Virus record (IMG/VR): IMGVR_UViG_2690316184_000004
Coordinates: 1 to 7,982 of that record
Source of the DNA: a virus
Taxonomy: Duplodnaviria; Heunggongvirae; Uroviricota; Caudoviricetes
Length of the DNA: 7,982 nt
Reading direction: 5' to 3' (one strand)
Shown here: piece after piece, positions 1 through 7,982 of the stretch
Position numbering within the stretch: the first letter of the stretch is position 1
Layout of the letters: the number at the start of each line of letters is the position of its first letter
Notes under the pieces: generated by a model
What the model was told of the DNA's origin: nothing
Seen by the model: only the letters and a program-made list of their open reading frames with translations
Databases searched by the model: none
Translations under genes and position numbers: made by a program

Positions 1-969
1 ATGAGTGAAGTAACAGATTTAGTTGTTATTGAAAAAGCAAATGCAATGACTGTATTTCAGTCTGCCGACCAGATTGAAGAAATCCTTCAAAGGGTTGAAC
101 GTGAAGTTATGTCCTTTGTGCCTGATATCACAACGGCAAAGGGCAGAAAGGAGATCGCTTCTCTGGCGTATAAAGTTGCGCAGACGAAAACATATCTCGA
201 TGGTCTTGGCAAAGACCTTGTTGCTGAACTGAAGGAAATTCCAAAGCTAATTGATGCTAACCGCAAGACAGTGCGTGATCGCCTTGATGAGCTGAAAGCC
301 AAGGCACGCCAGCCTCTTACTGATTATGAGGAAGAACAGGCGCGGATTAAAGCCGAAGAAGAAGCTAAGGCAGCAGCTGAAGCTCTCGCAAAGCAAATTG
401 AGTCTGACCATGAAATAGCGATTTTGATGGATCGCGAATTTGACCGCCAAAGAGAAGAGGCAAGACTCAAAGCGGAGCAGGAAAAGCGAGAGCATGAAGA
501 ACGCTTAAAAAAAGAAGCTGAAGAGAAAGCCAGAGCTGAAGCCGAAGCAAAGGCAAAAGCCGAAATTGAAGCAGCAGCAAGGCGAGAAGCAGAAGCTAAG
601 GCCGCAGCGGAACGTGCAGAGCGTGAACGCATTGAAGCCGAGCAACGAGCACAGCGCGAAGCAAAAGAGGCAGCAGAACGAGCTGAAAGAGAAAAGCAGG
701 CGGCAATTGAAGCAGAACGCCGAAAAGCACAGGAGGAGGCTGAACGAATCCGGCGCGAGGCTGAAGCAAAAGAGCAAGCCAGAATAGCAGAAGAAAAAAG
801 AATCAAGGACGAAGAAGAGCGTAGAGCAAAGGATAAAGCTCACCGGAAAGAAGTAAATAACAAAATACTTGCTGACCTTATCAAGGTTGGCGCATCAGAA
901 GATGTTGCTAAAAATATCATAACAGCCATCGTAAAAGGCGAAGTATTCGCAACAAAAATAACCTACTAA
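1..969 (+). CDS. Phage hypothetical protein with a ~175-aa E/A/K/R-rich helical (coiled-coil or single-alpha-helix-like) central region between globular N- and C-terminal parts; may be 5'-partial since the ORF begins at window base 1
   Basis: 322-aa ORF ending in tandem stops TAATAA (967-972). Residues ~109-284 are almost entirely E, A, K, R in AEAKA/ERAERE-type repeats. Antisense and alternate-frame ORFs in the same span are low-complexity artefacts. First gene of a co-directional phage operon. Confidence 0.6.
   Translation: MSEVTDLVVIEKANAMTVFQSADQIEEILQRVEREVMSFVPDITTAKGRKEIASLAYKVAQTKTYLDGLGKDLVAELKEIPKLIDANRKTVRDRLDELKAKARQPLTDYEEEQARIKAEEEAKAAAEALAKQIESDHEIAILMDREFDRQREEARLKAEQEKREHEERLKKEAEEKARAEAEAKAKAEIEAAARREAEAKAAAERAERERIEAEQRAQREAKEAAERAEREKQAAIEAERRKAQEEAERIRREAEAKEQARIAEEKRIKDEEERRAKDKAHRKEVNNKILADLIKVGASEDVAKNIITAIVKGEVFATKITY
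325..850 (+). repeat. Purine-rich codon-repeat low-complexity tract (GAA/GCA/AAG/CGA codons) encoding the charged helical region of the first CDS
   Basis: Visibly repetitive gaagc/aaggc/gcagaa units in the sequence. It generates spurious ORFs on both strands (87-302, 247-495, 324-806, 505-843 on -, and 566-787 on +). Confidence 0.5.
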
Positions 970-992
970 TAAACCAACATAAGGAACCACCC

Positions 993-1124
993 ATGATTTA
1001 CGCAATCGCGGGAGGCGCTCGCATGGGTGCCTTCCAACTAAATGAATCTTTACTTGAACGAATCACCCGTAAATTACGTGACGGATGGAAAAGAGTTGAG
1101 GTCTTATTATGCGCAATGAAATAG
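993..1124 (+). CDS. cIII: CIII-like small protein (lambda CIII family, inhibitor of host FtsH protease), 43 aa
   Basis: ATG at 993 preceded by AAGGAA (981-986). Product MIYAIAGGARMGAFQLNESLLERITRKLRDGWKRVEVLLCAMK contains the ESLLERITRKLRDGWKR core that I recall as the conserved amphipathic helix of lambda CIII. Below the 60-aa ORF-track cutoff. Sits where cIII lies in lambda, upstream of kil and the recombination genes. Confidence 0.55.
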   Translation: MIYAIAGGARMGAFQLNESLLERITRKLRDGWKRVEVLLCAMK

Positions 1125-1261
1125 CCATTAATCACCAGATGCTTCGTGCGGCACAAAACAAAGCAGTAATAGCCAGATTTATTGGTGATTCAAAAATGTG
1201 GCTTGAAGCAAATAAAGCGATGAAATCAGCTATCAACCTTCCGTGGTATCGCAGGAAATGA
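1109..1261 (+). CDS. Kil-like small protein (candidate host cell-division inhibitor), 50 aa
   Basis: ATG 1109 with GAGG (1098-1101) upstream; overlaps the cIII-like ORF by 16 nt in another frame. Product MRNEIAINHQMLRAAQNKAVIARFIGDSKMWLEANKAMKSAINLPWYRRK. The IA-FIGD-KM motif resembles my recollection of lambda Kil, and the position after cIII matches lambda order. Assignment from memory only. Confidence 0.4.
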   Translation: MRNEIAINHQMLRAAQNKAVIARFIGDSKMWLEANKAMKSAINLPWYRRK

Positions 1262-1416
1262 GTTTTACAGATAACTGGTCAGACGAAGAATTCATTCGTC
1301 AGATGAAAGAATTAATCGGTAACGAAGGAGATATTCATGTCACTTGCAACCACAGTGAAGGAGAGCAAGTTACAGAGGCGCATGTACACGCAGAAAGCTC
1401 TCTGGTATCGCCATAA
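1258..1416 (+). CDS. Hypothetical small phage protein, 52 aa
   Basis: ATG 1258 overlaps the upstream TGA stop (ATGA, 1258-1261), suggesting translational coupling. The only Shine-Dalgarno-like AGGA is 1 nt from the ATG, so the start is uncertain. Product MSFTDNWSDEEFIRQMKELIGNEGDIHVTCNHSEGEQVTEAHVHAESSLVSP. Confidence 0.3.
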   Translation: MSFTDNWSDEEFIRQMKELIGNEGDIHVTCNHSEGEQVTEAHVHAESSLVSP

Positions 1417-1515
1417 TGGCGACCGCGAAGGAATGCGGGTATGCCTTAATTTGTCCCGAGTCGAAGTATTAAATCAGCGTTATTTCCTTGGGCCATGTCC
1501 ATTCTGAGGTGAATT

Positions 1516-2223
1516 ATGGATTTGAACAAATTCGATGAGCCATTCAGCCCTGAAGATATCGAATGGCGAATACAGCAAAGCGGTAAAACACGCGATGGCA
1601 AAGTGTGGGCTATGGTGCTGGCTTATGTCACGAACCGGGCAATCATGAAACGCCTGGACGATGTTTGCGGCAAAGCAGGATGGCGCAATGAATACCGCGA
1701 TATTCCCAACAACGGCGGCGTTGAATGCGGCATATCAATCAAGATTGATTCCGAATGGGTAACCAAATGGGATGCTGCTGAAAACACGCAGGTAGAAGCC
1801 GTCAAAGGTGGTCGTTCAGGTGCAATGAAGCGTGCTGCCGTTCAGTGGGGAATCGGTCGGTATCTGTATAACCTTGAGGAAGGTTTCGCACAAACATCTC
1901 TCGATAAAAAGCAGGGATGGCACAGGGCAAAACTGAAGGATGGAACAGGATTTTACTGGCTCCCTCCATCGCTGCCTGGCTGGGCAATGCCAGTATCAGA
2001 TAACAAACCATCACCAGAAAATACCAACCAGAAATCTCCATCGGTTGACTGCGAACAAATCCTGAAAGACTTCAGCGATTATGCGTCGACAGAAACTGAC
2101 AAGAAAAAACTCATCGAACGTTATCAGCATGACTGGCAATTAATGGCTGGGAATGAGGATGCGCAGGCTAAATGCGTTCAGGTAATGAACATCAGAGTTA
2201 ACGAACTAAAACAGGCGGCATAA
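1516..2223 (+). CDS. Rad52/Sak-like single-strand annealing protein (DUF1071 / Rad52-22 family phage recombinase)
   Basis: 235-aa ORF; GAGG (1506-1509) 6 nt before ATG 1516. Contains the family pattern as I remember it: KRLDDVCGKAGWRNEY ... GISIKIDSEW ... KGGRSGAMKRAAVQWGIGRYLYN (GW...KRA...GIGRYLY). Immediately followed by ssb. Confidence 0.75.
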   Translation: MDLNKFDEPFSPEDIEWRIQQSGKTRDGKVWAMVLAYVTNRAIMKRLDDVCGKAGWRNEYRDIPNNGGVECGISIKIDSEWVTKWDAAENTQVEAVKGGRSGAMKRAAVQWGIGRYLYNLEEGFAQTSLDKKQGWHRAKLKDGTGFYWLPPSLPGWAMPVSDNKPSPENTNQKSPSVDCEQILKDFSDYASTETDKKKLIERYQHDWQLMAGNEDAQAKCVQVMNIRVNELKQAA

Positions 2224-2697
2224 ATGGCAAGCAGAGGCGTAAATAAGGTGATCATTATTGGTCGCCTTGGGCATGATCCAGAAATCAGATATTCACCATC
2301 AGGAACGGCATTTGCAAACCTTACAGTTGCTACGTCAGAACAATGGCGTGATAAGCAAACTGGAGAGCAAAAGGAGCAGACGGAGTGGCACCGTGTGGTA
2401 ATGAGCGGGAAACTGGCAGAAATTGCCAGCGAATATCTGCGAAAAGGCTCTGAGGTTTATCTTGAAGGCAAATTGCGGACAAGAAAATGGCAGGATCAAA
2501 GCGGACAGGATCGGTTCACTACCGAAGTCATCGTGGGCGTTGGTGGAACCATGCAAATGCTTGGTGGCAAGCAAGGAGGAAATGAACAGTCTTCACCTCA
2601 GCGAAATAACGGTCAGCAACAAAGGCAGCAACCTCAGCAGCAGGGAAATCACAGCGAACCACCTATGAACTTCGACGATTCGGATATTCCGTTCTAG
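2224..2697 (+). CDS. ssb: Single-stranded DNA-binding protein (phage-encoded SSB)
   Basis: 157 aa; ATG directly abuts the upstream TAA. N-terminal OB-fold region is near-identical in pattern to E. coli SSB ([58 protein letters not shown]). Gly/Gln-rich linker and acidic C-terminal tail DDSDIPF (E. coli DDDIPF). Confidence 0.95.
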
Positions 2698-2706
2698 GAG
2701 CTGAAA

Positions 2707-3186
2707 ATGAAAATCTGCTCAAGATGCCATCAACAGAAGGAAGAAAGGGACTTTCAAATCAGAAGAGCATCCAGAGATGGATTAACTGCCGCTTGCCGGG
2801 CTTGCCTGGCTGAATACGACAAAGAGCGCGCGGGATTGCCACATCGAGTATCAGCAAGGAGAGAATATCAATCATCGGAACGCGGCAGAGAACGGTGTAA
2901 CGCAGCCAAAAAGCGGTTCATTCAGAGCAACCCATGGAAAAGAAAAGCCCACATCATTGTGGGTAATTTTTTGCGCGACGGTAAGCTAATCCGACCACCA
3001 CAATGTGAGCGCTGCGGATCAGAATGTAAACCACAGGCGCACCACTGCGATTACAGTAAACCTCTTGAAGTAATGTGGCTATGCAAAGCATGTCATGTTG
3101 AATGGCACAAGCACAACAAGCCAATATATCCAGACGAGGAACCAGTAACCCTCCCCTTCCCTCGTCACGCTATTCACGCAATTTAA
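2707..3186 (+). CDS. HNH endonuclease with N-terminal Cys-rich (zinc-ribbon-like) region
   Basis: 159 aa; GGAG (2697-2700) before ATG 2707. C-terminal CERCGS...AHHCDYSKPLEVMWLCKACHVEWHK fits the HNH CxxC...HH...CxxCH pattern. N-terminal CSRCH ... CRAC gives a second Cys pair set. Confidence 0.75.
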   Translation: MKICSRCHQQKEERDFQIRRASRDGLTAACRACLAEYDKERAGLPHRVSARREYQSSERGRERCNAAKKRFIQSNPWKRKAHIIVGNFLRDGKLIRPPQCERCGSECKPQAHHCDYSKPLEVMWLCKACHVEWHKHNKPIYPDEEPVTLPFPRHAIHAI

Positions 3187-3194
3187 GGACTTAC

Positions 3195-3743
3195 ATGAAT
3201 CACTTAATGGTTGACCTTGAAGCAATGGGCAACGGGCCATATGCGCCAGTTATTTCTATTGGGGCGGTATTCTTTGACCCGAATACCGGAGAAACAGGAG
3301 AAGAGTTCTCGGTAAATATCTCGCTTGAGTCATCAATGCGATATCGGGCGCGTCCTGACGCTTCAACGATTTTATGGTGGATGGAACAGAGTGAAGAAGC
3401 CAGAAAATCGCTAACCAGCAACACTCAAGAGCTTTCAACGGCTCTTTCATGGTTATCTGAATTCATCATAAAGAACGCCAACCACAAACTCGTTCAGGTT
3501 TGGGGGAATGGAGCATCATTTGACTGCGTTATTCTCCGCAACAGTTATTCGCTGACAGGGCAGCCAGTTCCGTGGCAGTGGTGGAATGACCGCGACGTAA
3601 GAACAATCGTCGAACTTGGGAAGGTAATAGGATTCGATCCTAAGCGAGATATGCCATTCAAAGGAACTCGCCACAACGCGCTTGATGATGCCATCCACCA
3701 AGCCAAATACGTTTCAGCGATCTGGAAAAAGTTAGCTAAATAA
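3195..3743 (+). CDS. DEDDh-type 3'-5' exonuclease (DnaQ-like fold; resembles the Rv2179c-like exonuclease family found in prophages)
   Basis: Start chosen at ATG 3195 (AAGGAC at 3185-3190) rather than the overlapping 3102 extension. Motif I MVDLEAMG (D-x-E), motif II GNGASFDCVIL (Asp), motif III GTRHNALDDAIHQAKY (His...Asp). Confidence 0.8.
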   Translation: MNHLMVDLEAMGNGPYAPVISIGAVFFDPNTGETGEEFSVNISLESSMRYRARPDASTILWWMEQSEEARKSLTSNTQELSTALSWLSEFIIKNANHKLVQVWGNGASFDCVILRNSYSLTGQPVPWQWWNDRDVRTIVELGKVIGFDPKRDMPFKGTRHNALDDAIHQAKYVSAIWKKLAK

Positions 3744-3759
3744 TCAACAGGAGAAAACC

Positions 3760-4053
3760 ATGCCAGCGCCTCTGTATGGTGCGGATGACCCGCGCCGCTG
3801 TTCCGGCAATTCCGTATCGGAGGTGCTGGATAAATTCAGGAAAAACTACAACCGGATAATGTCGATACCGCAGGAAACGAAAGAGGAAAAGGAATTTCGC
3901 CACTGTATATGGCTTGCAGAGAAAGAAGAACGAGAGCGAATTTACCAGACATCAATCCGACCATTCCGCAAAGCCACATATACCCACTTCCCTGAAATTG
4001 ACCCGCGCCTGCGTAATTACCGCTCACGCTATGGCGCTATCAGTAATGACTGA
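3760..4053 (+). CDS. abc2: Abc2-like protein (P22 anti-RecBCD protein 2 family) - tentative
   Basis: 97 aa; AGGAG (3749-3753) 6 nt before ATG 3760. N-terminus [13 protein letters not shown] and the size match my recollection of P22-type Abc2 annotations in Salmonella/E. coli prophages. Position directly after the recombination genes is consistent. Not verified by alignment. Confidence 0.5.
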
Positions 4054-4063
4054 GGAATTTACC

Positions 4064-4231
4064 ATGAGAGGACTTGCATACAATCCCGGCATTCTTCCGG
4101 CAGAAATGATTATTCGCCAACGCGTAAAGCCAATGCCATCGAGAGAGGAATTGCTTAAGAGAAATTCTTTTCCTTCAGTGAATCAAAACAAATATCTGAA
4201 TGCGATGTGGCGCAAAGGAGGCAACCAGTGA
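4064..4231 (+). CDS. Hypothetical small phage protein, 55 aa
   Basis: ATG 4064 with GAGGAA (4052-4057) upstream; in frame with the track's 3914-4231 ORF but avoids overlap with the upstream gene. Stop TGA overlaps the next GTG start (GTGA, 4228-4231). Product [55 protein letters not shown]. Confidence 0.4.
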
Positions 4232-4671
4232 GCAAGATTGATTATCAAAAGCTTCGTGAAATCGCTGAAAAAACAAAAATTGCTGGTGAAGCACCTGTAA
4301 TGCCTTTCGATCAGCGAATTAATGCGCTTAACGATTTTATGAAGCACTTTTCGCCAGATATCGCGCTGGCATTGTTGGATGAACGGGAAAGAAACCTGCA
4401 ATACATCAAAAGCCGCGATCAGGAGAACGAGGATATTGCGCTAACGGTAGGGAAGCTGCGTGTTGAGCTGGAAGCAGAAAAACAGCGGGCAAAAGTTCTA
4501 TTTATGGAAAATGCTCGGCTTAAGTCAGGCGTAGCCGGTCTGATACACCTCGGTATTCGATATGCAGATGTTGAGGTCATGAGAATTGCTGGAGATGCCC
4601 AGCTTTCTACCCCATGCACTGACAGCATCATAAACAGCATTGCAACAGGCATTCGCATCAAAGGAGAGTGA
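4228..4671 (+). CDS. Ead/Ea22-like protein (N-terminal Ead/Ea22 domain only)
   Basis: Likely GTG start at 4228 with strong AAAGGAGG (4214-4221) 6 nt upstream; the track start at 4207 is also a GTG. N-terminus [15 protein letters not shown]...G matches the (I)DYQALRExAEKA opening typical of Ead/Ea22-like prophage proteins. 147 aa. Confidence 0.6.
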
Positions 4672-4672
4672 G

Positions 4673-4864
4673 ATGAACGGACAAATCTCAATTGTTCGAC
4701 CGGGAGCATGTGACGATCGCGAGATACGAATGATTATTCGTCTGTCGATGGGGAAAACAATAACGGCTCTCATTACTCCAGAAAATCTCGCATTAGCATT
4801 AACCGGAAAGTCAGACCTGCCAGTAGAGCTAAAGCTGCGAAATGTTGAGATTAAGGTGAAATAG
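4673..4864 (+). CDS. Hypothetical small phage protein, 63 aa
   Basis: ATG 4673 with GGAG (4663-4666) 6 nt upstream, 1 nt after the upstream TGA. Product MNGQISIVRPGACDDREIRMIIRLSMGKTITALITPENLALALTGKSDLPVELKLRNVEIKVK. No family recognised. Confidence 0.45.
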   Translation: MNGQISIVRPGACDDREIRMIIRLSMGKTITALITPENLALALTGKSDLPVELKLRNVEIKVK

Positions 4865-4866
4865 CT

Positions 4867-5430
4867 ATGACCACTATAACCAATAAGAAACAGTATCCCA
4901 GCGAGCAATATCTTAATGAGCTGATCACCAACATAGAGTTTGCTGCAAGGGCACCAGTTGAAGTCGTGAGAGCGATGGCAGCAGAGCTACAGAAGCGGCG
5001 CGAAGCTGATAGTGCCGAACCTGCAAGTAATCATGAAGAGTTGCCGCTTGATTATCTCCAAGGTCAAAAAGATGGTCTTGAATGGGCTGCGCAGCTTGCA
5101 GAAGCAAATCACCCACAAACTGGCGACTGGCTTTACGATGACCCGCTGGAGCTGGCTAAAGCTATCAGAAAAGGTCCTGACATGCCCGAATTCGATGGAC
5201 CAACTCCGGTAACTCCGGATGGTTGGATAAGCTGTAGTGAGCAAATGCCTGATGATGGTCAGCACGTAATTATTTTATGTGATGGTGCATTCGTTCTTTA
5301 TGCACAATATCGAGACGGTGAGTTTTTTGATGTTGTCCGCAATGGTGAGGAGTTCTTCGAAACGCAGAGCCGCAATGTAACCGACTGGATGCCTCTACCA
5401 GAACCGCCGCAGGAGGTTAACCGTGGCTAA
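4867..5430 (+). CDS. DUF551-domain phage protein (domain usually found at the C-terminus of Ead/Ea22-like proteins)
   Basis: 187 aa; ATG 4867 two nt after upstream TAG; AAGGTGA (4853-4859) upstream. C-terminal WISCSEQMPDDGQHVIIL...TDWMPLPEPP fits the DUF551 signature (W-I-x-V/C-x-E/D-x-L/M-P ... W-M-P-L-P-E-P-P) as I recall it. Confidence 0.65.
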   Translation: MTTITNKKQYPSEQYLNELITNIEFAARAPVEVVRAMAAELQKRREADSAEPASNHEELPLDYLQGQKDGLEWAAQLAEANHPQTGDWLYDDPLELAKAIRKGPDMPEFDGPTPVTPDGWISCSEQMPDDGQHVIILCDGAFVLYAQYRDGEFFDVVRNGEEFFETQSRNVTDWMPLPEPPQEVNRG

Positions 5431-5707
5431 CCTTCAACTGGTAGTTAACGGTGAATATTTCGACCAGATGAAGTCAGGCGAGAAAACGGAAGAGTATCGC
5501 CTGTGTAATGACTACTGGAATAAGCGAATTATGTTCCGGGAGTATGACCGCCTGATTATCACAAAGGGATATCCGAAGCGCGACGATTCCAGCCGCAGAA
5601 TTGATGTTCCGTATGACGGATATGAAATCAAGACAATCACACATCCGCACTTCGGCGATAAACCGGTAAAGGTATACGCGATAAAGGTGAATATCGGCAA
5701 TGAATAA
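5423..5707 (+). CDS. Hypothetical phage protein, possibly ASCH/PUA-like fold
   Basis: GTG 5423 with AGGAGG (5411-5416) 6 nt upstream; overlaps the upstream stop by 8 nt. 94 aa. Pattern VVNGEYFDQMKSGEKTEEYR ... LIITKGY ... VKVYAIKV loosely resembles ASCH-domain beta-barrel proteins (e.g. YqfB-like). Weak assignment. Confidence 0.5.
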   Translation: MANLQLVVNGEYFDQMKSGEKTEEYRLCNDYWNKRIMFREYDRLIITKGYPKRDDSSRRIDVPYDGYEIKTITHPHFGDKPVKVYAIKVNIGNE

Positions 5708-5742
5708 CAATCCTCGCACTCGCGGTGATTTCTTTTATCTGA

Positions 5743-5766
5743 ACTCGCTACGGCGAGTTTTGTTTT
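5743..5766 (+). terminator. Intrinsic terminator-like hairpin (internal operon terminator or attenuator)
   Basis: 6-bp perfect stem ACTCGC (5743-5748) / GCGAGT (5753-5758), 4-nt loop TACG, followed by TTTTGTTTT. Lies in the 72-nt gap between CDS 5423-5707 and CDS 5780-5947. Confidence 0.4.
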
Positions 5767-5779
5767 ATGGAGATGATAA

Positions 5780-5947
5780 ATGCACTTCCGAGTCACAGGT
5801 GAATGGAATGGAGAACCATTCAACAGGGTTATCGAAGCAGAGGACATCAACGACTGCTATGCCCACTGGATGCTGTGGGCGCAGATAGCGCATGCAGACG
5901 TAACCAATATTCGAATTGAAGAACTGAAAGAACACCAAGCCGCCTGA
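5780..5947 (+). CDS. Hypothetical small phage protein, 55 aa
   Basis: ATG 5780 with GGAG (5769-5772) 7 nt upstream; stop TGA sits in the loop of the downstream terminator. Product MHFRVTGEWNGEPFNRVIEAEDINDCYAHWMLWAQIAHADVTNIRIEELKEHQAA. Preferred over the overlapping track ORF 5700-5888. Confidence 0.4.
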   Translation: MHFRVTGEWNGEPFNRVIEAEDINDCYAHWMLWAQIAHADVTNIRIEELKEHQAA

Positions 5948-5962
5948 TGGCGGTTTTTTATT
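5939..5962 (+). terminator. Rho-independent terminator
   Basis: GC-rich stem CCGCC (5940-5944) / GGCGG (5949-5953) with 4-nt loop TGAT, followed by T-run TTTTTTATT (5954-5962). Confidence 0.6.
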
Positions 5963-6004
5963 ACCTGATTTGCAGGTTCGATTCCCTATTCGGAGATAGC
6001 ACTC

Positions 6005-6205
6005 ATGCAACACGAACTACAACCTGATTCACTGGTTGATTTGAAATTCATCATGGCCGATACTGGCTTTGGTAAAACCTTCATCTATGACCGGATTAAG
6101 TCCGGCGACCTGCCAAAAGCCAAAGTTATCCACGGTCGAGCAAGATGGTTATATCGTGACCATTGTGAATTCAAAAATAAGCTCTTAAGCCGCGCCAATG
6201 GGTAA
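6005..6205 (+). CDS. AlpA/Xis-like prophage DNA-binding protein (excisionase or transcriptional regulator family)
   Basis: 66 aa; GGAGA (5991-5995) upstream of ATG 6005. FIMADTGFGKTFIYDRIKSGDLPKAKVIHGRARWLYRDHCEF fits the AlpA-family pattern (helix-turn-helix, tG.s.stIY..i..G.FP, conserved Trp). Last gene of the phage operon, where xis sits in lambdoid phages. Confidence 0.7.
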   Translation: MQHELQPDSLVDLKFIMADTGFGKTFIYDRIKSGDLPKAKVIHGRARWLYRDHCEFKNKLLSRANG

Positions 6206-6221
6206 AATAGCGGGTAAAATA
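6200..6221 (+). repeat. Tandem direct repeat GGGTAAAATA x2 (12-bp period) overlapping the AlpA-like stop codon
   Basis: GGGTAAAATA at 6200-6209 and again at 6212-6221, separated by GC. Each copy contains a -10-like TAAAAT. Confidence 0.4.
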
Positions 6222-6254
6222 TTTCTCACATCTAAAAAACACCATTCCAATCAA

Positions 6255-6288
6255 TCCCCTGCTGCTTCAAGTAGATGTCTGCAGGGGA
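6255..6288. repeat. 8-bp inverted repeat TCCCCTGC / GCAGGGGA with 18-nt spacer
   Basis: TCCCCTGC (6255-6262) is the exact reverse complement of GCAGGGGA (6281-6288). No U-tract follows on either strand. Confidence 0.35.
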
Positions 6289-6681
6289 CACCAGATACCC
6301 TTCAAACGAAATCTACCTTCACCCCGTAAAAGATGGGTTTGGCAGCACACTTGCCTTATATCTACTCATTTTTACTGCAACAGGTTGAAATCTCAGCACT
6401 GTCAGAAAGCGCTGATGACTAAACAGCCCTGAGCCGGGCGATGTAACCATCACACAGAATCCTGATAGCGAAATATGGCGTGACTCGATACTTCACTCCG
6501 CAATGCATTCCTTGATGAATTCGCAGGACCGTGATACACGGGACAGGTCACTGAATGACGACAATGTCCTGGAAATCAGCGAACCGCGCATCTGAAGTAC
6601 ATTTGAGCGACTGTACCAGAACATGAATGAGGCGTTTGGATTAGGCGATTATTAGCAGGGCTAAGCATTTTACTATTATTA

Positions 6682-6725
6682 TTTTCCGGTTGAGGGATAT
6701 AGAGCTATCGACAACAACCGGAAAA
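6682..6725. repeat. 11-bp perfect inverted repeat TTTTCCGGTTG / CAACCGGAAAA with 22-nt spacer, 10 bp from the transporter stop codon
   Basis: TTTTCCGGTTG (6682-6692) and CAACCGGAAAA (6715-6725) are exact reverse complements. The T/A runs are part of the stem, not a 3' U-tract, so it is not a canonical intrinsic terminator on either strand. Confidence 0.4.
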
Positions 6726-6734
6726 AGTTTACGT

Positions 6735-7982
6735 CTATATTGCTGAAGGTACAGGCGTTTCCATAACTATTTGCTCGCGTTTTTTACTCAAGAAGAAAAT
6801 GCCAAATAGCAACATCAGGCAGACAATACCCGAAATTGCGAAGAAAACTGTCTGGTAGCCTGCGTGGTCAAAGAGTATCCCAGTCGGCGTTGAAAGCAGC
6901 ACAATCCCAAGCGAACTGGCAATTTGAAAACCAATCAGAAAGATCGTCGACGACAGGCGCTTATCAAAGTTTGCCACGCTGTATTTGAAGACGGATATGA
7001 CACAAAGTGGAACCTCAATGGCATGTAACAACTTCACTAATGAAATAATCCAGGGGTTAACGAACAGCGCGCAGGAAAGGATACGCAACGCCATAATCAC
7101 AACTCCGATAAGTAATGCATTTTTTGGCCCTACCCGATTCACAAAGAAAGGAATAATCGCCATGCACAGCGCTTCGAGTACCACCTGGAATGAGTTGAGA
7201 TAACCATACAGGCGCGTTCCTACATCGTGTGATTCGAATAAACCTGCATAAAAGACAGGAAAAAGTTGTTGATCAAAAATGTTATAGAAAGACCACGTCC
7301 CCACAATAAATATGACGAAAACCCAGAAGTTTCGATCCTTGAAAACTGCGATAAAATCCTCTTTTTTTACCCCTCCCGCATCTGCCGCTACGCACTGGTG
7401 ATCCTTATCTTTAAAACGCATGTTGATCATCATAAATACAGCGCCAAATAGCGAGACCAACCAGAAGTTGATATGGGGACTGATACTAAAAAATATGCCG
7501 GCAAAGAACGCGCCAATAGCATAGCCAAAAGATCCCCAGGCGCGCGCTGTTCCATATTCGAAATGAAAATTTCGCGCCATTTTTTCGGTGAAGCTATCAA
7601 GCAAACCGCATCCCGCCAGATACCCCAAGCCAAAAAATAGCGCCCCCGGAATTAGACCTACAGAAAAATTGCTTTGCAGTAACGGTTCATAAACGTAAAT
7701 CATAAACGGTCCGGTCAAGACCAGGATGAAACTCATACACCAGATGAGCGGTTTCTTCAGACCGAGTTTATCCTGAACGATGCCGTAGAACATCATAAAT
7801 AGAATGCTGGTAAACTGGTTGACCGAATAAAGTGTACCTAATTCCGTCCCTGTCAACCCTAGATGTCCTTTCAGCCAAATAGCGTATAACGACCACCACA
7901 GCGACCAGGAAATAAAAAAGAGAAATGAGTAACTGGATGCAAAACGATAGTACGCATTTCTGAATGGAATATTCAGTGCCAT
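6735..7982 (-). CDS. MFS transporter of the LacY-like oligosaccharide:H+ symporter family (substrate unknown)
   Basis: 415-aa ORF on the - strand with ATG at the very window edge (7980-7982), stop TAG at 6735-6737. Highly hydrophobic with about 12 predicted TM segments. N-terminal NAYYRFASSYSFLFFISWSLWWSLYAIWL parallels LacY [28 protein letters not shown]. The true start may lie beyond the window. Confidence 0.85.
   Translation of the reverse strand: MALNIPFRNAYYRFASSYSFLFFISWSLWWSLYAIWLKGHLGLTGTELGTLYSVNQFTSILFMMFYGIVQDKLGLKKPLIWCMSFILVLTGPFMIYVYEPLLQSNFSVGLIPGALFFGLGYLAGCGLLDSFTEKMARNFHFEYGTARAWGSFGYAIGAFFAGIFFSISPHINFWLVSLFGAVFMMINMRFKDKDHQCVAADAGGVKKEDFIAVFKDRNFWVFVIFIVGTWSFYNIFDQQLFPVFYAGLFESHDVGTRLYGYLNSFQVVLEALCMAIIPFFVNRVGPKNALLIGVVIMALRILSCALFVNPWIISLVKLLHAIEVPLCVISVFKYSVANFDKRLSSTIFLIGFQIASSLGIVLLSTPTGILFDHAGYQTVFFAISGIVCLMLLFGIFFLSKKREQIVMETPVPSAI

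Follow-up and report, generated by a model that had tools for sequence, protein, structure and literature searches.

A small gene placed between two terminator-like hairpins, close to the end of a prophage operon, raises the question of whether those hairpins are genuine terminators and, if so, what they would control. The window, that is, the whole stretch of 7,982 nucleotides analysed here, had been described in an earlier note as carrying two intrinsic terminators that bracket a single 55-aa gene ahead of a xis-like gene, with the suggestion that both genes would be gated in time by N-type antitermination.

The setting of the locus can be read from its genes. All the sizeable open reading frames between 1 and 6205 are on the + strand, and they constitute the gene set of a typical early-left operon of the lambdoid kind: first a TolA-like coiled-coil protein, next cIII and Kil, with a Rad52-like recombinase and SSB after them, followed by an exonuclease, an anti-RecBCD protein, an Ea22-like protein, a DUF551 protein and an ASCH-like protein (5423-5707), and, at the distal end, by the 55-aa ORF (5780-5947) and the 66-aa TorI (6005-6205). 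Both the content and the order (cIII, kil, recombination genes, ea-type genes, xis) are those of a PL operon. The xis-like gene announced downstream of the second hairpin proves to be that of the excisionase TorI, its product matching PDB 1Z4H (TorI) over 66 of 66 residues (E = 7e-43), and the same gene is annotated as torI in the RefSeq entry of strain ISHS7; it encodes the recombination directionality factor of a module of the KplE1/HK620/Sf6 type, and gene 18 of Sf6 is given in the Sf6 record as a homologue of HK620 HkaC. Beyond torI lie the attR core, CTGCAGGGGACACCAg (6279-6294, without strand), which agrees with the Sf6 attP annotation and at which phage homology ends (at about 6293), and then, on the - strand, the host gene cscB (6735-7982); the sequence of the KplE1 core can be found in PMC2951348. 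The + strand operon, TorI, the attachment core and host cscB together place the region where the PL operon of a prophage ends, by attR, and the window is thus the distal early-left operon of a P22-like prophage, ending in torI, attR and host cscB. In a similarity search of the phage collection, 378 records matched 5400-6400 and 254 matched 5700-5975.

Within this operon, a strict scan of the 7982 bases (8 contiguous pairs, at least 4 of them G-C, and at least 6 T in 8) returned hairpins 1 and 2 as its sole two hits, both on the + strand, with 0.013 hits expected by chance per dinucleotide shuffle and two hits in none of 300 shuffles; the same hairpins were the top two sites in a terminator scan of the window. 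Hairpin 1 (5741-5768) is formed by the arms GAACUCGC-UACG-GCGAGUUU (5741-5760), an 8-bp stem closed by a C(UACG)G tetraloop, and then UGUUUUAU, with the U-tract UUUUGUUUUAU at 5758-5768. It had been placed at 5743-5766 with a 6-bp stem; the hairpin and its U-tract are real, and the stem has 8 bp once the A-U and G-U pairs at its flanks are counted. Hairpin 2 (5937-5962) has the arms AAGCCGCC-UGAU-GGCGGUUU (5937-5956), likewise an 8-bp stem, followed by UUUAUU and counted with the U-tract UUUUUUAUU; its UGAU loop holds the stop codon of the 55-aa gene. The RNA folding that had been proposed as a check gave -11.9 kcal/mol (z = -3.95) for hairpin 1 and -13.0 kcal/mol (z = -4.11) for hairpin 2, and in each case none of 200 shuffles was equally stable. 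Folding and scans thus bear out the description of two terminator hairpins on the operon strand flanking 5780-5947, and support the view that both are intrinsic terminators of the canonical kind, oriented with the operon. A search of the whole window with the Rfam covariance models (E <= 1) gave no match to a riboswitch, an sRNA or a known leader.

There is, moreover, a third hairpin, overlooked in the earlier note, directly 5' of hairpin 1. It occupies 5709-5738 on the + strand, with a stem at 5709-5730 and the U-tract UCUUUUAU. All three U-tracts (UUUUGUUUUAU, UUUUUUAUU and UCUUUUAU) are + strand sequences, found in the two gaps between genes of an operon whose genes all point one way. Hairpins 1 and 2 have the stability of an intrinsic terminator, whereas this one reaches only -6.5 kcal/mol in the window, compared with -13.1 in lambda and HK022, because a G-to-U change opens the stem at a C5713.U5726 mismatch. 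By alignment, it is the homologue of the feature named 'tL4 terminator' in the HK022 record X51962 (271-299 of that locus, coordinates checked against the sequence), with which it shares its place, a hairpin and U-tract that come directly past the stop codon ending the preceding gene and ahead of hairpin 1; the difference is that the HK022 stem retains its full strength. A search of the literature for the name 'tL4' found no paper. The tL4 unit and the hairpin 1 unit are direct repeats of about 30 nt (alignment score of 28, against 4.3 +/- 5.5 for shuffles), and from this resemblance the left intergenic element (5709-5768) seems to have arisen by tandem duplication of a single terminator.

As for the gene between the hairpins, 52 of its 55 residues are identical to those of the lambda ORF between ea8.5 and xis, and it matches phrog_676 (E = 1e-39); on these matches it is lambda orf55, for whose product a model resembling T7 Gp2 has been put forward speculatively (PMC8614690). 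Its Shine-Dalgarno GGAG (5770-5773, + strand) comes directly past the U-tract of hairpin 1 and is kept in lambda, HK022 and Sf6. An outer helix (5728-5733/5770-5775) that would sequester this site in the minimum free energy fold was dropped as a candidate, lambda being mismatched there.

The likeness to lambda extends to the whole block. Between ea8.5 and xis, lambda reads TAA...CAATCCTCGCACTCGCGGGGATTTATTTTATCTGAACTCGCTACGGCGGGTTTTGTTTTATGGAGATGATAAATG...CAAGCCGCCTGATGGCGGTTTTTT, followed by the xis leader, and the 63 nt at 5900-5962 of the window are 100% identical to a P22 segment (L06296) annotated as 'identical to 29106..29165 in bacteriophage lambda'. Hairpin 2 and the last 45 nt or so of orf55 are therefore identical, or nearly so, to lambda t'I (about 29106-29128 in lambda), with which hairpin 2 also shares its location, immediately ahead of the gene for the excisionase where the PL operon ends. 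What follows is different: in lambda the U-tract runs into the xis leader CTTGCGTGTAATTGCGG, and in the window into an unrelated leader of the TorI/HkaC type, ATTACCTGATTTGCAGG, and the attachment site of the window stands between xis and int, unlike that of lambda. Judged from its sequence, then, 5708-5962 is a nearly identical copy of the tL4/orf55/t'I block of lambda. Hairpin 2 is labelled a terminator in P22 L06296, and a 'rho-independent terminator' in the HK140 record, while hairpin 1 carries no annotation in X51962. Some of these database labels are inferences themselves, as in the P22 record, where 'function is inferred from identity' to lambda t'I. The possibility that something new had been observed must accordingly be given up: the module is already annotated in the records of lambda, P22, HK140 and HK022, and since the block is present and annotated in lambda and its relatives, the finding is correct, although ordinary. 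The main use of the comparison is one of annotation, as the proper lambda names orf55, tL4 and t'I can be given to the block, with its unannotated 55-aa gene, in this and many other E. coli prophages. In K-12 no intact copy was found, KplE1 having a degenerate variant and Rac no copy.

The conservation of the hairpins was followed in at least 120 loci, viral contigs found by anchoring on the flanks of hairpin 1. The stem of hairpin 1 is nearly unchanged in them (123 loci in the stem comparison), with two common alleles, U-A and U-G at one pair, both of which keep the pairing. Variation in hairpin 2 is confined to the coding 5' arm, where GCC becomes ACC, GAC or UCC, and approximately one-tenth of the alleles, those with a GAC or UCC codon, are mismatched in that arm and fold at -8.7 to -10 kcal/mol; the TGAT of the loop is invariant except in two single-locus stem variants. 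All the changes are one-sided (U-A to U-G, G-U to A-U, and mismatches), and there are 0 compensatory pairs: the hairpins are too conserved for them, and hence the structure rests on energy and conservation rather than on covariation, and no covariance model was built. The mismatched alleles of hairpin 2, together with the weakened tL4-like stem of the window, indicate that strong termination is not strictly kept everywhere.

Stable 3' hairpins also guard mRNAs against 3' exonucleases, as mentioned in PMC7843447, and the hairpins of the block could on that account be chiefly stabilisers or processing barriers at the 3' ends of the upstream mRNA segments. Such a role would have no need of a U-tract directly past the stem, and yet the U-tract is conserved at all three hairpins, which makes this explanation very improbable.

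A second alternative concerns the strand, since hairpin 2 might act on the opposite strand, or on both, stopping antisense transcription that arrives from the att/xis side or from cscB. The RefSeq record of P22 (NC_002371) does assign hairpin 2 as terminator to the antisense aI RNA, made from the C1-activated promoter paI, cscB converges on torI, and the terminator scan lists a minus-strand site at 5953-5940. The stem of that site, however, has only 5 G-C pairs and a poor tail, CUUGGUGUUC, its fold of -10.4 kcal/mol is reached with non-canonical extensions counted, and the strict scan passes no minus-strand site in the window, which contains no CII/C1 box (TTGCN6TTGC), no paI-like promoter and no eaC, the gene that bears paI in P22. 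An antisense role for hairpin 2 is consequently unlikely. On the minus strand, the stretch between the end of cscB (6735) and torI (6206-6735) yielded no terminator-like site, so that transcription of cscB could run antisense into attR and torI.

The position of the TGA (5945-5947) in the loop of hairpin 2 suggests a third alternative, translation-coupled attenuation, in which the ribosomes that finish orf55 would block the hairpin and torI would come to need the translation of orf55; the near-invariance of TGAT would agree with it. But stop codons are common in the stems and loops of terminators, and in Sf6 and P22 the gene upstream of the hairpin is a different one and its stop codon lies some 40-65 nt before the hairpin, from which it follows that coupling is no conserved requirement; furthermore, the upstream tandem terminators would by themselves limit the transcription of orf55 when N is absent. 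We consider such coupling decidedly unlikely.

There remains termination in the sense direction, controlled by N, which is the textbook reading, the one proposed in the earlier note, and is consistent with all the evidence. According to it, the operon strand of the block would carry three Rho-independent terminators, of which two (the weakened tL4-like hairpin and hairpin 1) stand in tandem ahead of orf55 and the third, t'I, directly follows it. A polymerase that came from PL without N-like modification at nutL, or from a stray internal promoter in the lysogen, would be released at these terminators, while the N-modified polymerase would pass them, and orf55 and torI would be made only after induction or infection, which would make of them N-dependent delayed-early genes. 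A promoter scan found no sigma-70-like site near 5708-5779, and none for orf55 or torI; as orf55 is preceded by terminators and not by a promoter-like site, its expression would depend on read-through. It is probable, by analogy with lambda, that the terminators of the tL4/orf55/t'I block gate orf55 and torI in this way, and from the same analogy we infer that these sites terminate in vivo and are overridden by N.

This reading supposes an N and a nut site somewhere upstream. The earlier note had seen neither an N-like gene nor a nut site in the window, and this is confirmed, as the window begins downstream of any N gene. The upstream region was sought in contigs encoding the exact TolA-like protein of the window, among which one prophage contig (GCA_022546155.1, here L208) aligns over the whole window with 99.7% identity; this is the DNA of a relative, and it has candidates for both elements. 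In its upstream part there is a cI-like repressor, to which a terminator of its own belongs, as well as a PL-like promoter (TTGACC-17-TAAATT) and, about 1 kb before the point where the window starts, a candidate nutL (8997-9030), made up of a boxA-like UGCUCUU and, 3' of it, an 8-bp stem closed by a pentaloop. This boxB-like hairpin folds at -21 kcal/mol (z = -4.25), and its loop, UAAUU, is unlike the boxB loops of lambda (GAAAA) and P22 (GACAA). The N-like protein of L208 has 99 aa and an N-terminal arginine-rich motif, NARNRRRARRQAQRE, and matches phrog_271, 'anti-termination protein N-like' (E = 4e-36); its match to Pfam N_peptide is only E = 8e-4, under the cutoff. Some 20 nt ahead of the first gene of the window, L208 has one more terminator-like site, and another relative, vB_EcoP-683R2, carries an N of the lambda type (Pfam N36, E = 8e-26). 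In HK022 the override of terminators is due to put RNA and not to an N protein.

The logic would be that of the lambda terminators tL1, tL2 and tL3 with N and nutL, in which intrinsic terminators stand within a long early operon and the distal genes depend on N, although the sequences and the positions of those terminators differ from those of the window; tL3 would presumably be near exo/orf60a. A predicted terminator, t1 (PMC4195576), bears on this placing of tL3. A search of the literature for tL1, tL2 and tL3 gave irrelevant papers only, and one for tL3 led only to synthetic-biology uses of the name. Of the terminators within the operon of a P22-like phage it has been written that their roles 'are not known', with the suggestion that they might attenuate transcription partially, or stop transcription begun without antitermination (PMC8022706).

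If the terminators do act in this manner, t'I would shield torI. In prophages of this type the integrase, encoded at the other end, is always present at a low level, and excision takes place as soon as TorI is made; with the integrase constantly there, the terminator by torI would be a safety catch against spontaneous excision. The comparative data agree with this: each of the 124 TorI-type xis modules collected has, abutting it on the 5' side, one of two elements composed of a hairpin and a U-tract, t'I in about 90 of them and a hairpin of the HK022 type, GCCGCAUCAAUGCGG, with its U-tract, in about 34, and a good stem is lost only in the decayed type of K-12 KplE1 (5 instances) and in a few single-base variants. 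The excisionase of prophages of the KplE1/HK620/Sf6 type has, therefore, nearly always an intrinsic terminator on its 5' side, a sensible safeguard. The 'pI' annotated in Sf6 past hairpin 2 is marked there as 'possible' only, and in the window its fit to the consensus hexamers, judged by eye, is poor.

The HK022-type hairpin, as seen in K-12 KplE1 (L124, 4179-4265) and HK022 (L001, 880-960), is itself preceded by what appears to be the 5' part of another excisionase gene, which reads ...LTLDEA.QFLKIS... and is ypdJ in K-12. The decayed hairpin before torI of K-12 KplE1 folds at -2.9 kcal/mol.

The edges of the block raise a different possibility. Among the 120 contigs listed, homology breakpoints fall at 5700-5709 (64), 5770-5779 (20) and 5950-5969 (74), pile-ups at the edges of the element that are exaggerated because the loci had been chosen for containing it. 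Past the U-tract of hairpin 2 there are at least five unrelated sequences (the lambda xis, the torI xis and three other genes); the 60 nt on the 5' side of the left element, clustered at a loose threshold, give 19 groups, several of them variants of one gene; and between the flanks there are at least three different genes, Sf6 having a 99-aa gene followed by about 45 nt of the 3' end of orf55. The two types of hairpin (t'I and HK022-type) and the two types of xis (lambda and torI) occur in all four combinations, which speaks for exchange at the U-tract. Boundary or linker sequences at lambdoid mosaic joints are said to have been described in HK620 by Clark and colleagues in 2001, and the hairpins resemble them in being short conserved patches between exchangeable early-left genes: the bsq2 of Sf6 begins directly past hairpin 2, although as annotated it is the xis segment and does not include the hairpins.

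It could be, then, that the hairpins persist mainly as linkers for recombination at the borders of cassettes, regulation being secondary. The pile-ups of breakpoints, the varied neighbours at both edges and the four combinations of hairpin and xis all favour this, and we regard it as possible, though doubtful. A linker would have no need of a perfect G+C-rich stem or of a U-tract on the sense strand, the two different hairpins found before xis both retain the architecture of a terminator, joints at terminators would also be expected if each module brought its own 3' terminator, and the choice of loci has inflated the breakpoints at the edges. Such a role is, besides, compatible with termination and does not replace it.

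With termination gated by N kept as the probable reading, a combined view can be offered tentatively, in which the orf55 block would be a portable, insulated cassette whose terminators double as recombination adaptors for accessory genes and for the xis/int modules; if true, one hairpin of 20-30 nt with its U-tract would both silence the excisionase and join it to a module of the lambda or the TorI type. The comparative data offer in any case a tidy example of mosaic joints exactly on the U-tracts of terminators, although the modular or linker idea itself is old. The element is known and annotated lambda biology, to which, beyond naming, only this comparative picture of terminators at joints is added. 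In its context, orf55 is not unlike the morons that Juhala and colleagues reportedly described in 2000, extra genes that sit between phage genes and bring a promoter and a terminator with them: it is a small accessory gene bounded by terminators and found in many genomic contexts, with the difference that terminators, and no promoter-like site, precede it, so that it lacks the promoter of a moron.

Other features of the window and of its relatives were observed in the course of the comparison. Two contigs (L207 and L212, 16205-17732) are 99.9% identical to 1-6310 of the window, and past the att core they have, in place of cscB, a 420-aa integrase gene on the same strand; their order xis-att-int is that of a phage, but the integrase is of a different type, and RloB/AAA defence-like genes come after it. 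Further upstream in the window, at 2947-2964 on the + strand, another strong hairpin, GCCCACA-UCAU-UGUGGGU with AAUUUUUUG after it (-12.5 kcal/mol, z = -4.06), lies inside an ORF (2707-3186) that encodes, on the operon strand, a 159-aa cysteine-rich protein; this hairpin could be a terminator within a gene, or a structure formed by chance. Finally, the ASCH-like gene, which is intact in the window (5423-5707), is reduced in Sf6 (L002, 2973-3008) and in three other loci (L006, L007 and L123) to a remnant of 12 codons (MANLQL..VKGE*), joined in frame just 5' of the left element, which looks like a clean internal deletion in several phages.
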